In this document: one piece after another, positions 5,773 through 19,036 of the stretch | Layout: each line of letters opens with the position of its first letter | Numbering within the stretch: the stretch's first letter is position 1 | Assembly: GCA_039198915.1 (NCBI GenBank) | Contig: JBCCTE010000001.1 | Span: forward strand, 1 to 26,143 | Length of the DNA: 26,143 bases | From: Cyanobacteria bacterium P01_D01_bin.73 | GTDB taxonomy: Bacteria; Cyanobacteriota; Cyanobacteriia; CACIAM-69d | Direction of reading: 5' to 3' | The notes under the pieces: model-generated | Database searches by the model: none | What the model saw: only the letters and a program-made list of their open reading frames with translations | Told to the model about the DNA's origin: nothing | Translations under genes and position numbers: made by a program

Positions 5773-7608
5773 GTGAATCATAGCGCATGTACACACACAC
5801 CTGGTACCAGTGAACCAGCAGCACCGCTTCAGGCGATCCAAAGCACCCTAATTCCCCTATTTCCCCAAAGATCGCCCCAGCGCCGGATCCAGCTCCGGGA
5901 CTACCAAACGCAGATGCTTCGGGAAATTTATCGAGCAATTCGTGGGAACCAGTCCCGAGTGTTGGCGATCGCCGTCATGGGCGCGGGCAAGACGGTCCTA
6001 GCTAGCAAAATTATGTCCGACGCCGTGAGCAAGGGACGGCGGGCGCTATTCCTAGTCAGCCTCAACTGCCTGCTGGACCAGGCGGCGGGCACCCTAGAAA
6101 AATTTGGGATCCGTTGCTCAGTCTTGCAGGGCGATCGCGATTTCGACACCGGCGCACCGGCGATCGTCGCCAGTCTCCAAACAATCGCCGCGCGGCAACG
6201 GCGGGGGCAGTCTCTGGGCCAGATCCTAGGGCGCAATTTTGGGGTGGTATTCCTCGATGAGGCTCACATCACCGCATGGGATAAAACCTACACCGCCATT
6301 TCAGACTGGCTTCCTAACACCGCCATCATCGGGCTCACTGCAACTCCATGGCGGCTCAGTAAAAAGCAATGGCTAGGGCAGCAATTTGAGAGTGCTGTTA
6401 TTGGACCCCAGCCCCTAGACATCATCAAAATGGGCGGCGCGGTCCCGGCTCGCATTTTTCGCTTGGACGGGGCAATCAAGGAAACCGAGCTAAAGGTGCG
6501 CCAGGGTGAGTACGCCGACAGCTCCATTGCTCGACAAGCAACAACGCCAGAAAGCCTCGCAATCGTATTGAACGGGTACCAAGAACATTGCAGCGATCGC
6601 CCGGCGCTAATGGTGGGGGCCACCGTCTCTCAGGCTCAAGCAACAGCCGACCATTTCAATCAGCACGGGATAAAAGCTGAGGTAATTACCGGCAAAACCA
6701 GCCACCGCGATCGCCAGGCAATCATCGCTCGCTTAGCCAGCGGTGCCACCCAAATCATTTGCTCAGTGGGTTGCCTGACCGCCGGTTTCGATTGCCCGCC
6801 AGTGTCAGCAATCTTATTTGTACGGAAAACAAAAAGCCGAGCATTATTCCATCAGGTGTGCGGTCGCGGCTCCCGTCCCCACCCTGGCAAAACCGACTAC
6901 CTAATCCTCGACTTTGGCAATAACCAAACCCATGGCAACCCCATGGCAGCTCAGGATTATTCCATCGCCGAACCGGAGCAGCATGAGCTGGTGACGGTGG
7001 ATAAAGCCTGTCCCGCTTGCTTAGAAGTGGTGAGCATCTTCGTTCAGATTTGCCCCAACTGTGGGCATGAATTTAGCGCCAATACTGCTGCGGATGATGG
7101 TACCGAGGAATTAATCCAAGGCACTCTTTCCGAGCGATTCACGAAACAACAGCTCGCGCAACGACAATGGCTACGTGATGTGCGACGGCGGGCATTTGCG
7201 CAGGACGAAAACCCTAGCCGGTGTATTCAGCAATTTATCGATACCCACGGCTTTACACCACCAAAAGACTGGACCCACGGCGCAGCTCTAGGGCGCACCA
7301 ACGCCAGCGTTAGCCGCCGCTTGCAATACGTTGAATATCTAGAACGCCATTGCACTGAAGCAAAAGACGTTGAGGGCTGGCTTGCCTACCACTGCCAGCT
7401 TGAATTTGGCTGCGATTTTGAGCGACTGATGGAGCTACCTGGGTGGTGGGACGTTTTGCGAATACCCCCTGACTCGGGACCGGAAGAGGTCAGGGAAGCC
7501 TATCGCCGGGCATCACTAATGGCTTCCACCCAGGCAGATTTCCACCAGTTGAACACGGCGATCGCGTCGGCTAAGGCAGATTTGCAGGGGGTACCTGCAA
7601 ATGGCTAA
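5773..7608 (+). CDS. DEAH-box SF2 helicase (RadD/YejH-like) with Zn finger and C-terminal J-domain-like region
   Basis: LRDYQ, MGAGKT, DEAH, TATP, TAGFDCP, QVCGRGSR, CPAC/CPNC. C-terminal WWDVLRIPPDSGPEEVREAYRR. Start codon uncertain. Confidence 0.9.
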   Translation: MNHSACTHTPGTSEPAAPLQAIQSTLIPLFPQRSPQRRIQLRDYQTQMLREIYRAIRGNQSRVLAIAVMGAGKTVLASKIMSDAVSKGRRALFLVSLNCLLDQAAGTLEKFGIRCSVLQGDRDFDTGAPAIVASLQTIAARQRRGQSLGQILGRNFGVVFLDEAHITAWDKTYTAISDWLPNTAIIGLTATPWRLSKKQWLGQQFESAVIGPQPLDIIKMGGAVPARIFRLDGAIKETELKVRQGEYADSSIARQATTPESLAIVLNGYQEHCSDRPALMVGATVSQAQATADHFNQHGIKAEVITGKTSHRDRQAIIARLASGATQIICSVGCLTAGFDCPPVSAILFVRKTKSRALFHQVCGRGSRPHPGKTDYLILDFGNNQTHGNPMAAQDYSIAEPEQHELVTVDKACPACLEVVSIFVQICPNCGHEFSANTAADDGTEELIQGTLSERFTKQQLAQRQWLRDVRRRAFAQDENPSRCIQQFIDTHGFTPPKDWTHGAALGRTNASVSRRLQYVEYLERHCTEAKDVEGWLAYHCQLEFGCDFERLMELPGWWDVLRIPPDSGPEEVREAYRRASLMASTQADFHQLNTAIASAKADLQGVPANG

Positions 7609-10600
7609 TCAATTCCACTACTACCGCCAAGGCGACTGCCCAATCTGTGGAGGTGCTGGGCATAAATCCAATAAAGTTTGCCGGTCCACCACCACCGATG
7701 ACGGACGCATTAAGGTCCATTGCTGGGGTGGTGGCGACGCTCTTAAAGGCTGGGGATATGTGGGCGATGATACTCACGGCATGGCCCAGTACATCGAAGG
7801 CTGGGGCGATCGCCGGGATATGGACCGGGATGCCAGAGAGCGCAAAGCAACGGCGGCGCGGGCACAGGCGGAAAAGGAGCGGCTGGGGCGATCGCTAACC
7901 ATTGAACGGGATGCCACTTACCGGAAATGGCAGGACAATCAACGTCTGAACCAGCGGGACCGGGACGAATTAACCCGGCGTGGTCTCTTGCCCAATGAAA
8001 TTCAATTAGCGCAGGAGCTGGGCTGGTTACGCCGCTGGGAGAAAGGGTCACAGCTATTTGGTCCTGCCAATATTCCCGGCGTAAATCATTGGGGGCTTGG
8101 TGGGCAATCGGGACTGGCGATCGCAGCGCCTAATTCTGACGGGCTAATCGCAGGCTTCCAAGTCAAGCCGGATAGCCAGGGCGATGGACCCAAATATCGC
8201 TGGCTAGCTGGCTGCGCCCTGCGTAATAATGAGCAGCCCATTCCGGTATTTCAGCATCCAGATCGCCGTGGGGATGTGGAAATCTGGATTACTGAGGGTT
8301 TTCTAAAGGCACTCGTTACAGCGTTTCTGGCATGGCGGCTAGGGCTCACCCATGTCGTAGTGGTGGGCTGTGGCGGTTCCAACTGGGCAAGCGCACCGGC
8401 GCAATGGGAACGCACCCTGCAGCGCCTCAATCCCACCGCAATCTACCTGTTACCCGACGCCGGCGCGGCCCAAAACGAAAACATCCTGGGGCAAGCGGAT
8501 AGGCTGCGATCGCTCCTACGCGGGCTGGGACATACTCTCAAATTTAAGTGGTGGGGGCAATTCGATAAATCGGGCAAGGGCAACCTAGACCCTGACGAAG
8601 TACCCACCCAAACCATCATCGATGCACCGGCGCTACCCGCTATCCCCGCCGGCGCGATTCAGCTTTGGAGCGAAACCCCCCAGCGACAGGCGTTACTGGT
8701 ACCCGGCGTAGGAATGCCATTGCTGTATGAGCCGGGCGATCGCCAGCGGGTGTGGGAGGGCATGGAAGATCGGGCGATCGCCAGTGGGCAGTCGTTAGTG
8801 GTGCTAGATACTAGCGAAGCCGGAAGCGGCAAATCGCGGGACGCCGGAATATTTCTGCACAACGCCCCCAATGGCACCCAGCGAGTGTTTGCGTCTCAGG
8901 AATATCGCAACCCATCGGATCCCACGTTAGATGCCCTGCCAGAGCTAGAAGCGAAGCACCTGGGCTTGGTCGGCAACGACATCGATGGGCGGTATATCCG
9001 TCGCACCCCTAAAGCTGGTGAAGAGCCCAACATTGAGCCGTCATGCGCCAAAGCACCCTATTTCCACAAGGCTCACTCCATGGGAGTGCAGGCGATCGCC
9101 GGTGCGGATTGCCATGCCTGTCGTACTTGCCCCATGGCAGATATCACCTATAGGGAAGGGGAGGTAGTAGCTCTAACCTGCCAACACCTAAATCGTAAGC
9201 GGGCTACCAAAGATACCCCCGCCTACCGGTGCCATCCCAGCACCATAGCCAAGCCCAGCGAGCGCTACGATTCCCAGACCGTAATCATTGATGAAGCCAC
9301 ACCGGCGCTATCAGCGGTGCAATCCCAAAGCTTTAGCCCTAATGATCTAGCCCAAGATTTTCAGGCACTCAAGGTAACGGCACCGGAGCCGGCTGCCATC
9401 ATTGAACCCCTTGTAGATGCCGATATTTTGGCGCTCCACAAGCTTTCTGCCAGCAAAGACCCAGAGGATTACTACGGGCTATCAAGTTACGCCCTGATGG
9501 AATCTCAAGCTCAGGCTGTTAAAGCTGTGGAGAGCCAACTAGAGGCATCTCCACACTTCGACTACATCTCCGCTGCCACACCGTGGGAATGGCTTGCCAA
9601 ACGCCTGGATAAAGCAACCCGCACACTACCTGATCATCACCTGGGCTCCACCCTGGAAGAGCACCTATGGGCACTGGATAACCTGGCCCGAGCACGATTT
9701 TTTGGAGAGCGGTTACGAGCAACAACCGGGCAACACAGTCGAGCCACCATGCCCCGCACCAACATTGCCAATGGTGATCGCCCGGCAACTCTACAGCTAA
9801 GCAATGCCAACGCCCGCACTAAGGCGCAATTCAAAACTGCTAACCGGCTGTCGATACTGTTAGATGCAACCGGCTCTCCCGCGCACCTACGACGCATCAC
9901 GGGACAACCGGTGTTCTGGATTCAGCAGCGGCGATCGCAGTTTCCCAACCTCACCATCAAACTCATCACCGGCACCGACAAGCTGAAGGTAAATCGTGAG
10001 CAATCAACGCGCGACCGCGCCCGATTATTGGCCCAGCGAGTTGCGGATGCTCATCAAGGACAATCCATCGGGCTTATTGATTACCAGCGCTACCGGGACG
10101 ACTATGACGGACTGGGCTTCAAATTCCTGTCCCGATTTGTCGAGTCCCGTGGCACCAACCGGGCTAAAGATTTGGATGCGATCGCCCTAATGGGTGTCGG
10201 CGTTTCTAACCTGGGGCAGCTGGCCATTCAGTATGAGTTACTGCACCGGTGCACTATTGCTGACCTTGCCCATGACCGTCGATTCCTCGCGTGGGTACGA
10301 AGGCGATCGCTGGACCTGACCGTTCAGGAAATTTCCAGACTTCGAGCCCAATGGTCATCTACGTCCCAGACGGTGTACGTCGCCGGGGCGAGCAAGACGG
10401 CGATCGCCCGACTGCAAAAGGAGTTTCCAGGGGCAACCGTCGAAGTGGTGGACGTAATGCGAATCAGCCCCCAATCGGCAACAGAGAAAGCCCAGCGTAC
10501 TGCCAACGCGGTTATCGATAGTGCAATAACTACCGCTAAAGACACCGGAGTGATGCCTTCCCAACAAGCCTTAGCGAAGGCGACCGGACGCTCGCTGTCC

Positions 10601-10966
10601 ACGGTACAACGAGCAGTTAAGTCTGTTTGCGGACAAGGCTACCGAGCATTTTCCAAAGTGGTCAAACGGCTATTAGAAACCATTAATAGTGGTTTGACCA
10701 CTTTCCAAAACAGTCTTGAATTGGAGACTTTGCGTCAGGAATTAGACGCTATTGGCTGTGGGCATTTCTTTGGCAGCGCCAACGCTTTAGAGACCATGGC
10801 CACATTGGAGGAGCATTTTAAGAATTACGGGCAAGCTCAGTTTCTACGGGCAATCGAAGGCGTTTCGACTTATGGGCGTGCCGGTATAGATCGGGCGATC
10901 GCAGCTGCGGCTGTAGACCAGGCGATCACCGCTCCAAAACCGGTGCTCATATTGCCACCGGAATAA
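7601..10966 (+). CDS. Plasmid replication primase-helicase (ZnF-Toprim/DUF3854-like-helicase-HTH; cyanobacterial CyRepA-like)
   Basis: N-terminal CPIC...C...HC, Toprim IWITEGFLKA and YLLPDAG, P-loop EAGSGKS, VIIDEA, LLDATG, C-terminal HTH SQQALAKATGRSLSTVQRAVK. Overlaps the helicase gene by 8 bp. Confidence 0.75.
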   Translation: MANQFHYYRQGDCPICGGAGHKSNKVCRSTTTDDGRIKVHCWGGGDALKGWGYVGDDTHGMAQYIEGWGDRRDMDRDARERKATAARAQAEKERLGRSLTIERDATYRKWQDNQRLNQRDRDELTRRGLLPNEIQLAQELGWLRRWEKGSQLFGPANIPGVNHWGLGGQSGLAIAAPNSDGLIAGFQVKPDSQGDGPKYRWLAGCALRNNEQPIPVFQHPDRRGDVEIWITEGFLKALVTAFLAWRLGLTHVVVVGCGGSNWASAPAQWERTLQRLNPTAIYLLPDAGAAQNENILGQADRLRSLLRGLGHTLKFKWWGQFDKSGKGNLDPDEVPTQTIIDAPALPAIPAGAIQLWSETPQRQALLVPGVGMPLLYEPGDRQRVWEGMEDRAIASGQSLVVLDTSEAGSGKSRDAGIFLHNAPNGTQRVFASQEYRNPSDPTLDALPELEAKHLGLVGNDIDGRYIRRTPKAGEEPNIEPSCAKAPYFHKAHSMGVQAIAGADCHACRTCPMADITYREGEVVALTCQHLNRKRATKDTPAYRCHPSTIAKPSERYDSQTVIIDEATPALSAVQSQSFSPNDLAQDFQALKVTAPEPAAIIEPLVDADILALHKLSASKDPEDYYGLSSYALMESQAQAVKAVESQLEASPHFDYISAATPWEWLAKRLDKATRTLPDHHLGSTLEEHLWALDNLARARFFGERLRATTGQHSRATMPRTNIANGDRPATLQLSNANARTKAQFKTANRLSILLDATGSPAHLRRITGQPVFWIQQRRSQFPNLTIKLITGTDKLKVNREQSTRDRARLLAQRVADAHQGQSIGLIDYQRYRDDYDGLGFKFLSRFVESRGTNRAKDLDAIALMGVGVSNLGQLAIQYELLHRCTIADLAHDRRFLAWVRRRSLDLTVQEISRLRAQWSSTSQTVYVAGASKTAIARLQKEFPGATVEVVDVMRISPQSATEKAQRTANAVIDSAITTAKDTGVMPSQQALAKATGRSLSTVQRAVKSVCGQGYRAFSKVVKRLLETINSGLTTFQNSLELETLRQELDAIGCGHFFGSANALETMATLEEHFKNYGQAQFLRAIEGVSTYGRAGIDRAIAAAAVDQAITAPKPVLILPPE

Positions 10967-11056
10967 TCATTGCCACCACTTCAAAATCGCTGCCCCCTGT
11001 GTTAGGGGTAGCCGCTGCATGGACAATAGGGTGAATCACACTTAGTTCAGGTGTAG

Positions 11057-11419
11057 GTGATGAAGACCAAAGGCAAAAATGGCATTGATCCTTTCCCCCG
11101 CTACGTTATTGAGGAGGCTGTGAGGGCATATGGACGGCTAGAGAGTGCTAGGGAGATCGTCTCAAGCCCGCCCCCAGAAAATGCTGCTAGACCAGTCTCC
11201 ATTGAGCTTGAGCCCGGACTCATTCATGCGGGATTAAGGCAGGCTTTTGAGCAAATGTGCAAGGGCGAGGAAATAACTCTGACGGTCAACGTGACGCTGC
11301 CACTTTCCGAGGAAGATCTATTGAGCTGCATTGAGGAGTGCTTGGGAGAGCAGGAAAGCTCTTCACTCGTTACTTCTTTACCGGCCTTTCAGCTTGGCTC
11401 TCTGATCCAAGACAGTTAA
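11057..11419 (+). CDS. Hypothetical acidic protein
   Basis: 120-aa ORF downstream of rep; no recognisable motif. Confidence 0.55.
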   Translation: MMKTKGKNGIDPFPRYVIEEAVRAYGRLESAREIVSSPPPENAARPVSIELEPGLIHAGLRQAFEQMCKGEEITLTVNVTLPLSEEDLLSCIEECLGEQESSSLVTSLPAFQLGSLIQDS

Positions 11420-11501
11420 ATACGATTTGCATTGTGACGATTGCTCTCGCGCGGGGGACATTTTGAGGGTGTGTGTCTTGAGGATGCGCTTTATACATCT
11501 C

Positions 11502-12459
11502 TGGATTTCAGCGACCCCATCCTCGTCTGGTCAATGGACAGCTTAGACTTTCAATCCCTAGGAAGGATTCCGATGGATTTCAGCCAACGCTTTTAAGTTA
11601 AGGCGACCTTCTTTTTCAACTTTCAATCCCTAGGAGGGATTCCGATGGATTTCAGCAGATCCAAACAACCGAAAAAACGGGGCAAATCTCGCCTTTCAAT
11701 CCCTAGGAAGGATTCCGATGGATTTCAGCTGTAACCGAACCACTGAAAAGTCAGCGCATTGAACGCTTTCAATCCCTAGGAAGGATTCCGATGGATTTCA
11801 GCCATACGCTGCGTCGTTAAACGCCCGAGGGAAGGACTTTCAATCCCTAGGAAGAATTCCGATGGATTTCAGCGATAGTTCGCCTAGAGGGCACATGGTC
11901 CCAAACTCACTTTCAATCCCTAGGAAGAATTCCGATGGATTTCAGCGTCCCCTTAAGCCCATCACCCCTACAGAGGTATTTCTTTCAATCCCTAGGAAGG
12001 ATTCCGATGGATTTCAGCCCATCAGGTCCAGGTACCTGATCAGGATTCAAGTCCTTTCAATCCCTAGGAAGGATTCCGATGGATTTCAGCTTTGCACCAG
12101 GGCGGCGCTAATCCACCAAGATTTATCGCTTTCAATCCCTAGGAAGGATTCCGATGGATTTCAGCGGCTTGGCGTTTGGCGGCTAATTGATCCTCTTGTT
12201 CACTTTCAATCCCTAGGAAGGATTCCGATGGATTTCAGCTTTCATTCAGCTTCTCGGGGGTGAGGTTTAACAGTCTTTCAATCCCTAGGAAGGATTCCGA
12301 TGGATTTCAGCCAAGTTGAGGATCACTCTCCCGCAATTTAGGAGAACTTTCAATCCCTAGGAAGGATTCCGATGGATTTCAGCGCAGCTGGATGCTCCTA
12401 ATGGTTGGGTTTATCTCGAATCCTTTCAATCCCTAGGAAGGATTCCGATGGATTTCAGC
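11502..12459 (-). CRISPR. CRISPR array: 13 full 37-bp repeats plus a truncated terminal repeat, 13 spacers of 34-39 bp
   Basis: Minus-strand repeat GCTGAAATCCATCGGAATCCTTCCTAGGGATTGAAAG. Plus-strand starts at 11548, 11620, 11693, 11766, 11837, 11910, 11982, 12054, 12129, 12203, 12275, 12347, 12423; 11-nt remnant at 11502-11512. Orientation inferred from the 3' hairpin, the ATTGAAAG end and the degenerate left terminus. Confidence 0.98.
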
Positions 12460-12480
12460 TGTGGTGTCCTATAGCCCAAG

Positions 12481-14373
12481 CTATATCGGTGATTGAGCCT
12501 CCTTTTGCGCGGATTGATTATTAGCTGATATTCCAAAGGTGTCGGAAGTGGGATCGTGCGATCGCTCAGCCTGTGGCGATCGCAGATGTGTTGGGCTTTC
12601 CGCGACTCGCGCGGACCCTTTAGGCTGCACTTTTCGCCGTCTGTCCCGCGTAGCGGGGATTTCGGGATGATTCACCAAGTTGGACGAGAGAATATCCCCC
12701 GACTCGCGCACCAGAGTACGAACCTGACTATCACCGCTCTCAGGCGAACTACATAGGCCGTCAAAACGGCTAGGGGCATCGCTCACCGACACGAGCGCAC
12801 CCTTCTTAGACATCACTGGCGATAAGCTCAGTGGCTTTAAGCGTCCCGGTAGAATCCGGGATTTAGAATCAAGCGCATCGCTCAAGATGTTGGCGGCACC
12901 AACCCCATCACGATCACCTGTCCATCCGCAGCTACGGCAGACGTAGAGTCGTCCCCGTGGTTTGCGTCTAGCCCCGCACTTGGGACAAGTTTGAGAGGTA
13001 TAGCGCTCGCTTTGTAGCGATAGCGTTGCGCCATGTTCCTCTAATTTCTGCTGTAAAAGATCGCGTTGACGTCCAACCTCCCATAGGGCATTTCGCTTAG
13101 ATTGAAGCTTGCGAGTTTCCCCCTTTTTACGTCCCTTAGGGATGTTGAACACATCTCCAAAGTAAAGCGTTCCAACATCCTGGGCGATGCACCAATTAGC
13201 AATTCGCTTAGTCACACAGTGGTTTGCATAACGTAGCTTTCGCCGGGCGATCGCGTTATGGCGCCCAAGGGCATGCTTCAGTTTCCAATCCCTATTTGAG
13301 TAACGACGACGATACCGAAATGTCTCAGGAGAATTGCCCGCTGCAACGTGGCGCTCTAACTGTTCTCTGCGACGGTGGGCTGCAATGCGTTGGTGGGCGT
13401 ATTTCGTACCCGCCCCTGAAGACTTCGCCTCCATAGACGTCATTGTTTCCCGTTCTTCTGAGGAAAGGTAATAGCGCACTTGTCCACGGAACACCCGCGC
13501 CCTTTTTCGGTTAATAGCCTTTTGTGATCGTTCCCTCTGGCGCTTAACAGCAAGGATGTCATGCCCCGACACCGAACGAATACGCCCTTTGCTATCAGCT
13601 ACAACCATCGCTCGAAGCTGACCAGGATCGACCGCTGCCACATTAGTCAGCGCTTTCACCTCATCTGCATCTGGCTTTGGTAAGGAATAGGAAAGGTGAA
13701 TCCATGCATCTCCCCCGTCATCAAAAGAGATGGATGCTTGCAAGACTTCCATTCCTACCATCTTGGGAGGAACTGATACGGTGACAAAACCACCAATCTG
13801 AGTTTTAGACCCCAGCTGCAGGTGAGTACCGACCCACCGACACTCTGCCTTCAGGACATCCCACTTACGCCCTGATGGCTTACGAACAGAGCGGAACCGC
13901 ATCGGCAACTGAGCCCGGTAATTTCCCTTCTTGCGATGAGTCCAGAAGCCTTTGATTTGACCACGCATCCCCCGGCAGAGTGCGGATACTTGCTTAGAGC
14001 TAATGCCATACTTGCACCCGGCATCGAATGGAGCTGGTTGCCGGTCCGTCAAAGCTTTCAGGTACGGCCATGGCTCTAGCATGGCGTCCTTCCGGTACTC
14101 AGCTACCGGTACCCCAGCTATTACTTCACCTGTGTCCGCAAAAATACGGCGGGCTCGCTCAGCTCCTTTTCCTTTGATAAAGCAATGTCGAACTGCATCC
14201 CCATTAGCAATTGGGAATATTGGCTGTGAATGCAACCTCATTGCATTAACCAGCTCGTTGTAACACCATCGTTGAGCAGCCATTAGCGCCGCAACCTGTG
14301 CCCGCTTCTTTCTCGTCAAGCGCACTGGCGTGACGACAGTTCGCGACAGTTTAGTGGTTTTATCTTTCGCCAT
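12481..14373 (-). CDS. tnpB: CRISPR-adjacent TnpB/Cas12f-like RNA-guided RuvC protein
   Basis: N-terminal helix AQRWCYNELV, RuvC-I AAVD249PG, RuvC-II LYFG406D, QSE456RYTSQTC, Zn finger C463/466/479/482, RuvC-III DRD489GVGAANI. Stop codon 21 bp from the first repeat. Confidence 0.9.
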   Translation of the reverse strand: MAKDKTTKLSRTVVTPVRLTRKKRAQVAALMAAQRWCYNELVNAMRLHSQPIFPIANGDAVRHCFIKGKGAERARRIFADTGEVIAGVPVAEYRKDAMLEPWPYLKALTDRQPAPFDAGCKYGISSKQVSALCRGMRGQIKGFWTHRKKGNYRAQLPMRFRSVRKPSGRKWDVLKAECRWVGTHLQLGSKTQIGGFVTVSVPPKMVGMEVLQASISFDDGGDAWIHLSYSLPKPDADEVKALTNVAAVDPGQLRAMVVADSKGRIRSVSGHDILAVKRQRERSQKAINRKRARVFRGQVRYYLSSEERETMTSMEAKSSGAGTKYAHQRIAAHRRREQLERHVAAGNSPETFRYRRRYSNRDWKLKHALGRHNAIARRKLRYANHCVTKRIANWCIAQDVGTLYFGDVFNIPKGRKKGETRKLQSKRNALWEVGRQRDLLQQKLEEHGATLSLQSERYTSQTCPKCGARRKPRGRLYVCRSCGWTGDRDGVGAANILSDALDSKSRILPGRLKPLSLSPVMSKKGALVSVSDAPSRFDGLCSSPESGDSQVRTLVRESGDILSSNLVNHPEIPATRDRRRKVQPKGSARVAESPTHLRSPQAERSHDPTSDTFGISANNQSAQKEAQSPI

Positions 14374-14473
14374 CTAGATAAGTGGCTCAGCCGGTCATAT
14401 CTAATGAAAATTGATACTGATTTCAGAATAGCAATGTTCCAGGAGAGAGTGGTCGGGTCTGCCTTAACTAGCT

Positions 14474-14875
14474 TTATTTGTTGGCTTCGGTGTCTAGCCC
14501 TTCAGCCGCAATGCGCAGAGATTGCTGGTTGGGGCATCGGTCAATATCGCTTTCGTCAATGGCTGCCAAGCCGCGCAACAGAAGCTCTGCATTCAAGTGA
14601 ATTTCTAGCTCGGAATCAGTAGGGATGAAAATTTCGACCTGATTATCACTGCCTAAAACCACAACTTGATCGCCGAAGCTTACCAGTTTTTCTAGCTCAG
14701 CTTTAGCGCCCGGCTTAGGGGAAACGCCACACAGCTTTACTGGCTGGTTTTGCCCGTTGATTTGGACCACCAAAGTTTCACCATCGATGATCTCAGAGAG
14801 AAAGCCGCTCTGGCTGCTGTAGTTCTGATCGCAACTCAGTAGCAGTAGAGCCAGCAAGGTTATCCAGGATTTCAT
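14474..14875 (-). CDS. Thermonuclease (SNase)-like lipoprotein, catalytic motifs degenerate
   Basis: Lipobox LLLSC; EIIDGETLVV...VKLCGV...LNAELLLRGLA. Canonical DGDT, GIDAPE and YGR motifs are altered or missing. Confidence 0.7.
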   Translation of the reverse strand: MKSWITLLALLLLSCDQNYSSQSGFLSEIIDGETLVVQINGQNQPVKLCGVSPKPGAKAELEKLVSFGDQVVVLGSDNQVEIFIPTDSELEIHLNAELLLRGLAAIDESDIDRCPNQQSLRIAAEGLDTEANK

Positions 14876-15135
14876 CGCTGTGCGATCGCCCCCGCCACTG
14901 TTAACAACGTTTTTTCGAGTTGCTTCATTCTGTTCTCTAAATCGGCAACTTTGCTTTGGAGGCTTGCTCCGGTTTCTCGTTTTAGCTCGCGCAAAACAAT
15001 TTTTTTTAGCAAACCAGCGCGGGTTGTCCCTTGTTCATTCGCTAGCTTGTCAAATTCATCAATGGTTGTCTGGTCAAGACGGCAACCGACAGGGATGGAA
15101 CTCATTTTGAAAACGGCGTTAACGTGCGCCGCCAC
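14872..15135 (-). CDS. CopG/RHH-like regulator with C-terminal coiled coil
   Basis: IPVGCRLD-helix-TTRAGLLKKIV, then heptad LQSKVADLENRMKQLEK. ATGA overlap with the next gene. Confidence 0.7.
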   Translation of the reverse strand: MAAHVNAVFKMSSIPVGCRLDQTTIDEFDKLANEQGTTRAGLLKKIVLRELKRETGASLQSKVADLENRMKQLEKTLLTVAGAIAQR

Positions 15136-15223
15136 TAAATTTCATTCTCAATAATTGGCACCTGTTTTCAACAGCCGCGATTAATAAATTGCCGCCTGCC
15201 TACAATCCTTGTATTTACTGCTA

Positions 15224-15251
15224 ATGTTAGATAATACTAATTATCTCATAT
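15224..15251. other. dif/Xer-like 28-bp recombination core site
   Basis: ATGTTAGATAA-TACTAA-TTATCTCATAT: 11-6-11 architecture, arms 9/11 inverted, with inner ATAA/TTAT as in Xer sites. Ends 7 bp before the recombinase ATG. Confidence 0.65.
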
Positions 15252-15258
15252 TAAAATT

Positions 15259-16080
15259 ATGGGACCGATTTACCACGATTGGATCAGTCGAGCGCGATCG
15301 CCTCATACGGCTCGGATCTACCAACAGAGTTTGGATAAGTGGAAATCGGTGTTTGGGAGGTTGCCGTCTGGAGAAACGAGGGCAGCTAATTTAGATCGGT
15401 TTCTTAGATCGATGGCTCATTTGTCGCCAGCAACGAAAGCAACCCATATACGGAATATCAAAACGTTGTTGCGCTGGGGGCATGATGAGGGGCATTGGCG
15501 TTGTCCCCCGTCGGTGTTGAAATATCGATTGCGATCGCCGGGGACTGCTGCTGCGTCGCGATTCTTAAGTCCTGACGATGCCCGAGCCATCATTACGGCG
15601 GCTGGGAATGAGCGGGACCGGTTGATGTTGCAGTGCTTGTTTTCTTTAGGACTTAGGAATGCTGAGTTGCGGGGGCTGGAATGGTCCGACCTATACTATG
15701 ACCGCCTTACGGTGCGGGGTAAGGGGGAGAAGGTGCGATCTCTGATGGTGCCGGAAGAGCTGCTGAAGCAGTTGAATGTGTGGCGAGCTGCTAGCAGTGG
15801 TAAGGGGCTGATTTTCCGTAGTCATCGTAGTGGATCAAGACTGGAAGGGCAGCATGTGTGGCGGGTGGTGAAGGAGGCGGCGGCGATCGCCAGGGAGGCA
15901 GATCCGAGTATTCCCGATGCGAGTCCCCACTGGTTCCGTCATGCGTTGGCGTCAGCGGCTTTGCAGGGAGGCGCGACGGTTAAGCAGGTACAGGTGTATT
16001 TAGGGCATTCGTCGGGGCAAACGACGTTGGATACCTATGCCCATGTAATTGGGGATGTGGCGATTGCGGATTTTGTTTAG
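15259..16080 (+). CDS. Tyrosine recombinase (XerC/D-like; likely multimer resolvase)
   Basis: GLRNAEL, RGKGEK, HWFRH, LGHSS, TYAH: the catalytic R-K-H-R-H-Y set is intact. Confidence 0.93.
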   Translation: MGPIYHDWISRARSPHTARIYQQSLDKWKSVFGRLPSGETRAANLDRFLRSMAHLSPATKATHIRNIKTLLRWGHDEGHWRCPPSVLKYRLRSPGTAAASRFLSPDDARAIITAAGNERDRLMLQCLFSLGLRNAELRGLEWSDLYYDRLTVRGKGEKVRSLMVPEELLKQLNVWRAASSGKGLIFRSHRSGSRLEGQHVWRVVKEAAAIAREADPSIPDASPHWFRHALASAALQGGATVKQVQVYLGHSSGQTTLDTYAHVIGDVAIADFV

Positions 16081-16244
16081 GTAGTGTAGAAGTAAATTTC
16101 ATTACAGATATTCCCTAACGAATAACAGTATGGGGATAAAACATAAATAATTGACTTCGAATGTAGAAAGTTCTTGAGTTGAACAAGACAGCAGTTCTCG
16201 GAAATTAATCTATCGATTTTTGACATGTCAAATAGGCTTAAAAA

Positions 16245-16412
16245 ATGTCCATAGAAAACAAAAATAAAAAATCTTCTTCCCTATCCGTAGAATCTATCTC
16301 TAGTGATGATTCCGAATTAGAAGAAAAAGAAAATTTGTCAGGAATTTTTTCTCGAAGAAGCATTAAAGAAAAGCTTAAAAGATATACTCAGTATGACAAT
16401 TTACAAGGATAA
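16245..16412 (+). CDS. 55-aa peptide missed by the ORF track (possible precursor/leader peptide)
   Basis: My translation: MSIENKNKKSSSLSVESISSDDSELEEKENLSGIFSRRSIKEKLKRYTQYDNLQG*. Ends 29 bp before the peptidase-like gene. Confidence 0.5.
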   Translation: MSIENKNKKSSSLSVESISSDDSELEEKENLSGIFSRRSIKEKLKRYTQYDNLQG

Positions 16413-16441
16413 GAATTTGATAAAGAACTATCTTCTAGAAA

Positions 16442-17515
16442 ATGATTTTTTTGTCTGATCTGATTTCAATTTTTGGCGATGAATTTGGGGACATTTTATT
16501 TCTTGTTGCTTCACACGAAATTCGAAAATTTATTCATGTCTCTGAAGCCTTAAGAGATATTGTTGAAGTGACTGAAATAGAGTGGATAGATTTTCAGTCT
16601 CGTAGAAAAATAGCCGATCAAATTTTATCGTTGAAACAAGATGGGCGCTATTGTTCAGTGCTAATTATTTCTGAAGATGATTATAGTCATTTCGATGAGA
16701 TCGAAATACTTAACGCCAAAATTGCAGCTATTTCCTTCTTTTCAACCTCCTTTAGTTTGCAAGCACTTTCGAGGACGGCTGAAATTATAAAGAACACTAA
16801 TTACGCTCTTCAGTTAAAAACAGAATTAGCTCTGGTGGAAAGGTTAGACGAGGCAGATGTGACTATTTTTCGAGATGAAGATTATGGTACGGAGTCTGTC
16901 TTCCAGCATCATGAAAGTGATAATTGGTTTTCTCTGCATGGACCTCTTTCCTTTGGGCAACAAGCAGTTCTCCCAACAGGAGAGTTATCTGTATTAACAG
17001 ATGAATCTGGTCAATTCTCCGATCAGTCTAAATTTCGTTTAGATGGAAAATTACTTGTTAAAGGGGTACCTATTATTCATCGAAGTGACTTTAATGTCTC
17101 ACTGAAAGAAACCATAGAGACTTACGATAAATTATCTTCTATGAAGACAGAATCTATTATTTTTAATGTTAAGGATGGAGAGATTGTAAGTATTGCGGAT
17201 GCGAGTATGCGTAACACCAGTCTTTTGCAAGAGTTTGAAGAATTGCTTTCATCAGATAGTAGATATTGTAAAATCCATGAAATTGGATTTGGCAGTAATC
17301 CCAACTGTGCTGATCTATTTGATGAAAACTACTTCCCTAATGAAAGATTTCCCGGCGTCCACTTCGGTTTAGGGTTGGGGAGCTTTACGAAATATCATAT
17401 AGATTTAGTCTGTGAAAATACCAAGGTTTTTATTGGTTCAGGCAACTCGTATGAATTAAGAGAAGTTTATGATACTGCTGCTCTCCAGTTTCGGGAGAAT
17501 TCATCTTTGTACTGA
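16442..17515 (+). CDS. M29 aminopeptidase-like metalloprotein (CgnB/CgnE-like)
   Basis: LPTGEL, HEIGFGSNP, PNERFPGVHFGLG and HIDLV parallel the M29 metal-ligand motifs. AT-rich, no HIP1. Confidence 0.65.
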   Translation: MIFLSDLISIFGDEFGDILFLVASHEIRKFIHVSEALRDIVEVTEIEWIDFQSRRKIADQILSLKQDGRYCSVLIISEDDYSHFDEIEILNAKIAAISFFSTSFSLQALSRTAEIIKNTNYALQLKTELALVERLDEADVTIFRDEDYGTESVFQHHESDNWFSLHGPLSFGQQAVLPTGELSVLTDESGQFSDQSKFRLDGKLLVKGVPIIHRSDFNVSLKETIETYDKLSSMKTESIIFNVKDGEIVSIADASMRNTSLLQEFEELLSSDSRYCKIHEIGFGSNPNCADLFDENYFPNERFPGVHFGLGLGSFTKYHIDLVCENTKVFIGSGNSYELREVYDTAALQFRENSSLY

Positions 17516-18441
17516 CCGAATTGAGGCCAATTTCTTGAAGAAAGTATTTCTATTCGTCTGACTTCTTTTACTTTGACATTACTTAATGGCTCTAGTCGCA
17601 TACTTCGAAGGTGAAATTTAAGAGCACAAAGTATAGTATAATTTTCGGCTTCAACTAAGTATTGAATCGGATCCAGCTCACTTTTAGATAGAGATTCCCT
17701 TATCCTGACAACATCAATCCTCTTCCATTTTGAAGGGGCTAGGATAAAAGCTATATCATTCGAGTCATCGAAATTGAATCCATTTACATTGTGCGTGTTG
17801 TGCCGAACTAGAAAGTTATTTAGAGATGCTCTTTTTATCTCATCGTTTTCTCCTGCATCAAATTCTCTCTCTCTGTAGTAAAGTCTACTGGCAAGAATAG
17901 TTGAATCTTTTGCTTTTCTCTCTAGTTCATTAGAAAATTTTCTAAACTCAATATTAGGAATTGAACCATAGCTAGATAACTTGGAAGTGGCAATATAAGC
18001 ATATCCATACCCTAAATCTTTTACGATTTCACTCATAAGTAGATATGCAGGAGTCAAGTTATCAATCTGCATAATTTGAGTTTCATCTGTGATGTGATTG
18101 ACAATTGCCATGGCACTGTCAGTTATATATTTATAGGTATAGTCTCCAAAAACTTTGCTGGTCGTTTGAAGATATTGAGGCTTTTTACTAACAGAGTGTC
18201 TATTTATTTTTGAGATTACATGCCCCATATCGTTGTCTATTTGCTTTTTCATGCTACTTACTTGCAAATCGACACGTGTAATCTTTATCCCAACACCTGA
18301 CAAGAATAATCCTGTTGAAATAGCTGATGCAACTTTTGAAGCCGAACTTTCTTTAATATACGGCTCTAGTACTGAAGTAATTACTGTAAGGGCAATCCCA
18401 CTAAATATTAAAAATGCATCTATCTTGTTTAGAAAATTCAT
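17467..18441 (-). CDS. Hypothetical protein with two N-terminal TM helices and a soluble C-terminal domain
   Basis: 324 aa; FLIFSGIALTVITSVL and AISTGLFLSGVGI. AT-rich, convergent with and overlapping the peptidase-like gene by 49 bp. Confidence 0.75.
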   Translation of the reverse strand: MNFLNKIDAFLIFSGIALTVITSVLEPYIKESSASKVASAISTGLFLSGVGIKITRVDLQVSSMKKQIDNDMGHVISKINRHSVSKKPQYLQTTSKVFGDYTYKYITDSAMAIVNHITDETQIMQIDNLTPAYLLMSEIVKDLGYGYAYIATSKLSSYGSIPNIEFRKFSNELERKAKDSTILASRLYYREREFDAGENDEIKRASLNNFLVRHNTHNVNGFNFDDSNDIAFILAPSKWKRIDVVRIRESLSKSELDPIQYLVEAENYTILCALKFHLRSMRLEPLSNVKVKEVRRIEILSSRNWPQFGQYKDEFSRNWRAAVS

Positions 18442-18657
18442 AAGCGTAGAAAACTTTTGACGATCAAAAAGTCTTGTTTTTGAGTAGATGAATGGAAATT
18501 AAACTTCAATTGAAATTGAATTAATCTCAAAATTTTTTAGAAAATAATTTTGAGGTAAAAACTTAACTGTTTTTTGTTCTCCAGTTATATCGACATGTTT
18601 TTTTGAGGCGAAATCTCATGAGAATCTCGCTAATTGGCCATGCTCTTGAATTCTGTT

Positions 18658-18891
18658 TCATAGACTAAAAGAGCATGAACTTTCTCTTGATTTCTGCTGA
18701 AAGAGAGCTTCATTAACAGCTTTACGCACAAACTCTTGCCGATCACTTCCCATTGCTCGCAGCGCCTCATCTGCTTCAACTGAGAACCTGACAGCGATGG
18801 GCTTCTTCGCTAATTCCAGCGTGTCGTGCTTAGGCTTCTTGAACTGATCCCACTCCGCTGGTTTTTTGGGGCTTGGATTGCCTTTAGCCAT
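18658..18891 (-). CDS. Small RHH-like DNA-binding protein
   Basis: MAKGNP...KPIAVRFSVEADEALRAMGSDRQEFVRKAVNEAL. Likely start at 18891. Confidence 0.65.
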   Translation of the reverse strand: MAKGNPSPKKPAEWDQFKKPKHDTLELAKKPIAVRFSVEADEALRAMGSDRQEFVRKAVNEALFQQKSRESSCSFSL

Positions 18892-18894
18892 TGT

Positions 18895-18980
18895 TTTTCC
18901 CGGTATACACTCTCTTGCCAGTATACCGGGAAAATCTACCTGTGCAGGCATTTGACATTATGCCGGTATACTGGCATAAT
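18895..18980 (+). promoter_or_regulatory. Sigma70-like promoter with palindromic operators
   Basis: TTGACA (18952-57), 17 bp, CATAAT (18975-80). A 24-bp near-perfect palindrome spans 18957-18980, and a 14-bp perfect inverted repeat lies at 18895-18908/18921-18934. All share a GTATAC core. Confidence 0.75.
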
Positions 18981-18996
18981 AGAATCAACGCAAACA

Positions 18997-19036
18997 ACAA
19001 CCCCTGCGATAGCCTAGGAACTCGCGCAGGGGTTGT
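18997..19036 (+). other. 5'-UTR hairpin
   Basis: acaacccctgcg / cgcaggggttgt, perfect 12-bp arms with a 16-nt loop, between the promoter and the ATG at 19063. Confidence 0.6.

Follow-up and report, generated by a model that had tools for sequence, protein, structure and literature searches.

A compact effector gene beside a CRISPR array in Cyanobacteria bacterium P01_D01_bin.73 (contig JBCCTE010000001.1, positions 1 to 26,143; this whole stretch of 26,143 nucleotides is called the window) probably encodes a CRISPR RNA (crRNA)-guided DNA endonuclease with a D249/E456/D489 site, which would act from a plasmid on other mobile DNA, possibly without collateral activity. The effector belongs to the TnpB/Cas12 superfamily by its TNB/zinc-finger and split RuvC profiles and by its overall fold. 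Its type of active site is already known, and the effector is an additional, CRISPR-linked carrier of it. The initial annotation of the window had marked a rearranged RuvC site at 12907-13629, which runs from the D489 codon through the D249 codon within one minus-strand open reading frame (ORF), and had taken the protein to be a TnpB that is probably active rather than a dead repressor of the TldR or Cas12m type.

The relocated RuvC glutamate and its conservation

At RuvC-II, where canonical enzymes carry the catalytic glutamate, the effector reads LYFGDV, and in a phmmer comparison with solved structures this stretch aligns on IQMEDL of AsCas12f, placing G406 on the canonical Glu. Fifty residues downstream, a script confirmed the glutamate E456 in QSERYTSQTC. 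The stretch sERYTSQTC aligns on dpQYTSQRC of solved Cas12f, with E456 on a Pro, and Pro also fills this column in ISDra2 TnpB, CnCas12f1 and SpCas12f1; unlike the effector, the solved Cas12f and TnpB chains aligned here have the canonical Glu together with Pro at the E456 column. These alignments uphold three observations of the initial annotation, namely LYFGD where Glu is expected, a glutamate 50 residues further on, and a non-acidic residue at that place in canonical enzymes. The zinc finger and the DRDxxxxNI motif are both intact in the effector.

Nine close homologs at 32-58% identity all carry D249, G406, E456 and D489 unchanged. HMMER, run exhaustively over 1.8 billion representatives, returned 1580 matches, and for the wider comparison we used an 89-row set of proteins of at least 380 amino acids (aa) taken from two homolog searches. 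In this set D249 is retained in 88 rows, G406 in 87, E456 in 88 and D489 in 87, and the four zinc-finger cysteines in 85-88. The full expression E-x6-CxxC-x12-18-CxxC-x4-8-D, which in the effector begins with E456-x6-C463, is matched by 66 of the 89. The best ~70 matches of TnpB size all carry Gly at the canonical site and the alternative Glu, and the nearest 88 full-length relatives nearly all combine Gly at the canonical site with Glu six before the first CxxC, in agreement with the earlier assignment to a rearranged-RuvC lineage. Given these column counts, the whole sequence-space neighbourhood of the effector falls in the class with Gly at the canonical site and Glu before the zinc finger. 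As judged from the alignments, this pattern of active-site residues is not due to chance.

The same arrangement has been described for other RuvC enzymes. Clade RIIr-5 has Gly in place of the catalytic Glu, and a Glu that sits on beta5 and not on beta4, as in RuvX, makes up for the loss; AlphaFold models of this clade have the compensating Glu facing the active site (PMC10691335). An alternative Glu lies ~45 residues downstream in all Fanzors and in 'TnpB2' (PMC10530073), and the structure of ApmFanzor2 has an Asp324/Glu467/Asp501 triad around one Mg2+ (PMC11832414). The substitutions D324A and E467A in ApmFanzor each abolish cleavage, and TvTnpB, a rearranged TnpB, cuts DNA in a manner dependent on a target-adjacent motif (PMC10530073), which bears out the earlier statement that the alternative glutamate supports activity in rearranged enzymes. 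In a pairwise alignment of effector residues 395-505 with chain 9b0l_P, E456 falls on Glu467 and D489 on Asp501 of ApmFanzor2. On sequence grounds this match is the strongest single piece of evidence that the effector may be an active nuclease. Local phmmer comparison of the RuvC-I region (residues 205-300) with the PDB returned noise only, so D249 was assigned through the family profile on ISDra2 TnpB and not onto Asp324 of 9b0l. The profile aligned the RuvC-I motif of the effector with the stretch aGVDvG, which we take to be the RuvC-I motif of ISDra2 TnpB (D191).

An AlphaFold2 model of residues 1-530, built on the 89-row alignment, had a mean predicted local distance difference test (pLDDT) score of 90.3 and a predicted template modelling score of 0.85, with pLDDT 95-98 in the four blocks of 10 residues containing the key positions (D249 97, E456 97, D489 98). 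DSSP assigned beta1 to residues 244-250 with D249 near its end, beta4 to 400-407 with G406 near its end, and beta5 to 450-455 with E456 as the next residue; the zinc ribbon comes after it and is followed by a helix at 488-501 with D489 at its start. In the model, the order of the strands matches the published topology of Ealt (alternative-Glu), RIIr-5 and TnpB2 proteins. Superposition of residues 1-504 by VIA-align gave Z 20.2 with ISDra2 TnpB (root-mean-square deviation 3.1 Å, 329 residues aligned), 17.6-18.5 with Cas12f, 16.7 with ApmFanzor2 (4.3 Å, 383 residues), 12.9-13.2 with Cas12m2 and ~12.8 with Cas12k, and the top Foldseek matches were to AsCas12f (E 6.7e-15).

The TNB domain of Cas12f1-like proteins (PF07282) was recognised at residues 435-496 with 63.4 bits against a Pfam cutoff of 26.3, and the NCBIfam model 'guided_TnpB' (NF040570) spans residues 122-497 with 91.8 bits, under its cutoff of 100. 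The best PADLOC profile, Cas12f (E 2.5e-22), covers residues 353-498 only; those of Cas12u2, u3 and u4 cover the effector in part, and none of the four covers its full length. Membership in subtypes V-K or V-U2-4 was rejected, Cas12k giving only a weak partial profile match in the PDB search and the Cas12u2-4 profiles being partial. The public gene model (P0002) has 533 aa and starts at M98, that is, without residues 1-97 (14083-14373). The 630-aa ORF is the better gene model, because residues 1-97 align with homologs and residues 8-49 fold into a strand and a long helix at pLDDT 96-98. Across all folded domains the frame is open, with neither stops nor shifts. The tail beyond them is likely disordered, since pLDDT drops to 88 and then 50 past residue 510, and in the alignment of close homologs it is poorly conserved apart from short patches.

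A CRISPR array behind the effector and its relatives

The array begins 21 nucleotides (nt) past the effector stop codon. Ten of its 13 repeats are identical and the other three have one mismatch each, and the repeat was found nowhere else in the 72%-complete genome. The repeat hairpin is no more stable than shuffled sequence (z -0.73), and spacer searches of the own genome and of genomes of the same order gave, besides two degenerate repeat-like units in a genome of the same genus, only one match of 26 out of 29 positions, which spans a repeat-spacer junction and is probably due to chance. Arrays follow the effector gene at all five homolog loci having downstream DNA, with five repeats at L001, four each at L016 and L004 and two each at L002 and L003; Tandem Repeats Finder missed the short arrays of L002, L004 and L016, which were recovered by a separate repeat search. 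The first repeat of these arrays begins right at the final codons of the effector or runs into them, the place expected for an omega-RNA. From one locus to the next the repeats are unrelated in sequence, but they often end in TTGCAAG, TCGCAAG or TTGAAAG. Three further homolog contigs break off within 33 nt past the stop codon. The earlier framing of the protein as a TnpB is incomplete: the effector is linked to a CRISPR array and is not a transposon TnpB.

Separately, a genome of the same genus (G004, contig C379) holds two degenerate units, CCCTTCC(A/C)AGGGATTGAAA, 69 nt apart at L059 1432-1532. They resemble the 3' half of the window repeat, with neither array nor effector found there, and may be what is left of a related array in this sister genome.

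The effector is single-copy and is the sole PF07282 gene of the 72%-complete genome; it is immobilised and not a multi-copy insertion sequence (IS) element. Homologs at E<=1e-30 were absent from 399 other sampled genomes of the class, and in metagenomes only 14 representative clusters reached this threshold. On a maximum-likelihood tree of the 89 rows, 17 family members, together with one fragment, group on one branch of their own (SH-aLRT 99, stem length 0.79), apart from ~70 Ealt proteins of TnpB size. The spacing from the RuvC-I Asp to the Glu is 188-235 residues in the family versus 138-146 in the TnpB-size relatives; the effector, at 204, is ~65 residues longer here than those relatives and the Fanzor plan. 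Helices inserted at 271-397 in the model agree with this longer spacing.

The neighbours of the effector in the window are plasmid-like (a ParM-like ALP_N protein, ParA, Bro-N, a tyrosine integrase and RusA), and HIP1, a cyanobacterial hallmark, occurs 40 times against 0.5 expected. The locus lies on a cyanobacterial plasmid-like contig. Domains of Cas1, Cas2 and Cas4 were not found among the window ORFs scanned.

This setting distinguishes the effector from the systems that share its active site. ApmFz2 (PDB 9b0l), from a mimivirus of Acanthamoeba polyphaga, has the same layout, with DPG in RuvC-I and DRD..N in RuvC-III, at only ~15% identity, and Fanzors in general share with the effector a non-acidic residue at the canonical Glu and a Glu six before the CxxC zinc finger. 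Fanzors, however, are eukaryotic or viral, transposon-borne and omega-RNA-guided and carry a nuclear localisation signal, whereas the effector is bacterial, single-copy and CRISPR-array-linked. Gly with the alternative Glu is likewise common to the effector and the rearranged TnpBs (RIIr-5, PMC10691335; TnpB2/TvTnpB, PMC10530073; Ealt/pro-Fanzors, PMC10711439), but these are proteins of ~400 aa in IS200/IS605 or IS607 elements, whereas the effector family has 500-850 aa; the effector has no adjacent TnpA, and the array sits where the omega-RNA of rearranged TnpBs would be. The small type V systems (Cas12f, V-U variants and TranC intermediates) have the same plan of a compact TnpB-like effector with an array directly downstream, and like the window locus they have no adaptation genes and a mobile-element location.

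The combination of DPG in RuvC-I with Ealt has been called 'exceedingly rare' and specific to Fanzors and the cyanobacterial IS607 'pro-Fanzors' (PMC10711439). The effector (P0001) carries this 'Fanzor fingerprint', with D249-P250-G251 and E-x6-CxxC. The published search expression would nevertheless miss it, because it allows 120-160 residues between DPG and Glu. Within the CRISPR-linked family, DPG is confined to P0001 and its three closest relatives (P0003-5), the others having DLG, DMG or DFG, and the 89-row tree needs at least nine changes at this motif, which makes it homoplastic among the sampled Ealt proteins. A tyrosine integrase at 15259-16080 is the sole recombinase found in the window, and none of the serine type was found there. 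Pro-Fanzor membership was rejected because of the spacing, the place of the effector on the tree and the lack of an IS607 TnpA. Read on the tree, the fingerprint of the effector appears to be a local, independent acquisition; having arisen independently within the family, it is not evidence of pro-Fanzor membership.

The C-terminal motif and the weighing of activity against binding and decay

A beta-clamp-binding-like motif, QL[STENDA][LI]W with D, G or S after it, closes the low-complexity tail in all 12 homologs that retain their C-terminal end. The TAG stop of the effector in the window falls at the Q codon of this motif, and a second TAG stands at the W codon. Seven homolog loci encode QL[STEN][LI]W at the exact place of the window relic with synonymous differences in their codons, so selection acts on the protein sequence of the motif. 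Some TnpB-size Ealt relatives end in QLSLF or QLTLF, which fits the beta-clamp-binding consensus, and a putative motif at the C-terminus of cyanobacterial IS200/IS605 OrfB was noted earlier (PMC3971601). DnaN of the same genome, with a 32-row alignment, was co-folded with the C-terminal tail of homolog P0006, for which the alignment had 12 rows. The pair scored 0.75, against 0.00 for the best of three controls; this mark was reached by 58 of 80 complexes of solved structure and by 2 of 110 mismatched pairs. The runs agreed in at least 53% of contacts, and the pLDDT of the partner was at least 45. The predicted contacts join tail residues 35-43 and 45 (motif Q39-W43) with clamp residues 173-178, 247-252, 353-355 and 369-376, which we take to be the canonical peptide-binding pocket. 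Many clamp-peptide complexes are already solved, and the pass is for this reason a sign of likeness and not proof of binding.

In the mechanism that we favour, D249 at the end of beta1, E456 just past beta5 and D489 at the start of the helix after the zinc finger would form the metal-binding triad, and G406 at the canonical beta4 Glu position would leave space for the side chain of E456 to reach across. The guides would most likely come from the 13-repeat array directly downstream. Sitting on a plasmid-like element without adaptation genes, the system would probably interfere with competing mobile DNA and, by analogy with Fanzors and TvTnpB, may cut its target without collateral cleavage of single-stranded DNA. 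On sequence and model together, the effector most likely cuts DNA under RNA guidance and is not a dead binder. The initial annotation had likewise proposed a probably active nuclease, and the placement of E456 and D489 on the Mg2+ triad of ApmFanzor2, with zinc finger and DRDxxxxNI intact, argues for it.

Several points weigh against this reading. We infer nuclease activity from these comparisons, and with it that the effector binds metal, cleaves DNA, takes its guides from the array and has no collateral activity; that E456 lies close to the D249/D489 pocket is predicted from topology and homology. A blastn search of the whole array against phages and plasmids gave zero protospacer matches, and exact 25-26-nt cores of four spacers gave none in IMG/VR. 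Neither a tracrRNA nor an anti-repeat was seen within 10900-15300, and no Rfam family was found in 11300-14700. An intact triad is also present in some Cas12m proteins that bind DNA without cutting it. Finally, the window copy has lost the conserved C-terminal motif of its family to a stop codon, which could mean relaxed selection.

The best-surviving alternative is a Cas12m-type crRNA-guided binder or silencer, whose RuvC domain would serve in pre-crRNA processing or nicking and which would block replication or transcription of a target plasmid without double-strand breaks. We consider it unlikely. A plasmid-borne, stand-alone effector with an array and without Cas1, Cas2 or Cas4 among the ORFs scanned is in keeping with the V-M/V-U lifestyle (PMC10691335), the searches found no spacer targets that would show the outcome of targeting, and Cas12m2 is among the structural matches. 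Yet the nearest tested proteins of this exact layout (ApmFanzor2, other Fanzors and TvTnpB) cleave DNA (PMC10530073), sequence and structure alike place Cas12m well behind TnpB, Cas12f and Fanzor2, and the triad and zinc finger stay invariant over a sequence divergence of more than 60%. TldR, Cas12k and part of Cas12m share the superfamily fold with the effector, whose gene is likewise non-mobile and single-copy, but they have lost at least one catalytic residue or the zinc finger, whereas the effector keeps D, the relocated E, D and C4. The earlier exclusion of a dead repressor is supported as far as residue loss of the TldR/Cas12k kind is concerned; an intact triad would also fit a Cas12m-like binder that uses RuvC only for RNA processing.

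Decay is far less probable. On this account the effector would be an inactive remnant that keeps its motifs only through recent descent, as the two TAG codons in the QLxLW motif and the shorter public gene model might suggest. The loss is, however, confined to the last ~7 residues, the frame is open over all folded domains, the N-terminal 97 residues align and fold as described above, and the array combines largely identical repeats with 12 unique spacers out of 12. Least probable, and close to negligible, is that D407, E432, E446 or D487, which are invariant or common in the close family, completes the site and that E456 is only structural: E467A also reduced the expression of ApmFanzor2 (PMC10530073), which gives the equivalent residue a structural part as well, but among the 89 relatives 41 keep E432 and 24 keep E446, two glutamates that do not vary in the close family, and 19 keep D487 (His being commoner at that column), against 88 for E456, D407 is the non-catalytic D of the canonical E-D-L motif, and Glu467 belongs to the metal-coordinating triad of the solved Fanzor2 (PMC11832414). 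An active crRNA-guided endonuclease with a D249/E456/D489 site remains the reading that we prefer.

Neighbouring genes and meaning of the family

Positions of the effector gene, its residues, the array and related features are collected in Table 1.

Table 1. Features of the effector locus and of homolog loci (window positions unless a locus is named)
Feature	Positions	Strand	Description or basis
Effector gene	12481..14373	-	ORF of 630 aa plus TAG stop; TnpB/Cas12f-like, with WED, REC, RuvC and zinc-finger (TNB) domains
D249 (GAT 13627-13629, AAVDPGQ), RuvC-I motif D249-P250-G251	13621..13629	-	Putative catalytic Asp, end of beta1
G406 (GGA, LYFGDV)	13156..13158	-	Gly at canonical RuvC-II Glu position; AsCas12f alignment, DSSP
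E456 (GAG, QSERYTSQTC)	13006..13008	-	Putative relocated (alternative) catalytic Glu, six residues ahead of C463; conservation, ApmFanzor2 alignment
D489 (GAT, GDRDGVGAANI)	12907..12909	-	Putative RuvC-III catalytic Asp; ApmFanzor2 alignment
C4 zinc finger C463-x2-C466...C479-x2-C482 (CPKC...CRSC, 463-482)	12928..12987	-	Four Cys verified
Low-complexity C-terminal tail, residues ~505-630	12484..12861	-	Model pLDDT and alignment of close family
Relic of QLxLW(D/G) motif in window copy	12463..12483	-	TAG CTT GGG CTA TAG GAC ACC = (stop) L G L (stop) D T
CRISPR array	11548..12459	-	13 repeats of 37 nt, 12 unique spacers of 34-39 nt
Degenerate 12-nt fragment of 14th repeat	11501..11512	-	Array end distal to effector
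Mini-arrays of homologs	L001 8146-8471; L016 3326-3587; L004 4985-5245; L002 4551-4650; L003 2911-3010		Repeats ~37-42 nt, period ~72 nt
Gene ends with the C-terminal motif	L016 3300-3341; L004 4960-5007; L002 4520-4547; L001 8120-8164; L017, L018, L019 gene ends		
Upstream small-gene regions	L001 5425-6129; L018 400-684; L019 710-946		

Several family members have small DNA-binding genes immediately upstream, with an Xre-type helix-turn-helix protein in L001, L018 and L019 and, in L001, also a protein that combines RHH_5 and GIY-YIG. In the window, an 87-aa ORF with a weak RHH_1 match (E 0.027) at 14872-15135 on the minus strand is followed by a 133-aa ORF without family (14474-14875, minus strand). 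Such small upstream DNA-binding genes may be regulators of the effector. Beyond the array, 5773-10966 on the plus strand encodes a 611-aa ResIII/Helicase_C protein that overlaps the start of a 1121-aa protein with only a weak HTH_36 match; the best PADLOC profiles of the helicase are type IV methyl-directed restriction helicases. This pair, which stops ~580 nt away from the array's distal end, may form a second defence module. An AT-rich island at 16001-19000 (GC 0.35-0.37 versus ~0.52 elsewhere), directly after the tyrosine integrase, has two large ORFs without Pfam family and no HIP1 sites.

A conserved CRISPR-array-linked family with a rearranged site is not described in the literature examined. 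A published census holds that TnpB was captured by CRISPR many times, altered-catalytic-site branches included, and mentions V-U variants with altered catalytic sites (PMC10691335); the family may fall among the variants V-U6 to V-U45 that it lists. A structure-led mining preprint of 2026 says nothing on rearranged sites. We tentatively raise the possibility, doubtful as it stands, that the family is an undescribed type V subtype from the relocated-Glu (TnpB2/pro-Fanzor-like) branch, ancestrally tethered to the replisome by a beta-clamp motif, of which the window copy is truncated.

Recognising the relocated glutamate corrects the naming of relatives as 'transposase', the term that public sources use, and the verdict of a canonical D-E-D check, which would call the effector dead; the initial annotation was right to warn of such an error. 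Enzymes with the rearranged site lack collateral single-stranded DNase activity (PMC10530073), and a crRNA-programmable member could for that reason be a clean compact editor. The presence of a clamp-binding-type tail in most of the family hints at a testable connection of RNA-guided nucleases with the replication fork. The rearranged branch has been described as separate from Cas12 (PMC11832414). A conserved family of CRISPR-linked proteins carrying this site would run counter to that description and fits the census of repeated TnpB capture (PMC10691335), and if the undescribed-subtype reading is true, the 'Fanzor-type' site would also have been recruited for CRISPR-guided interference.

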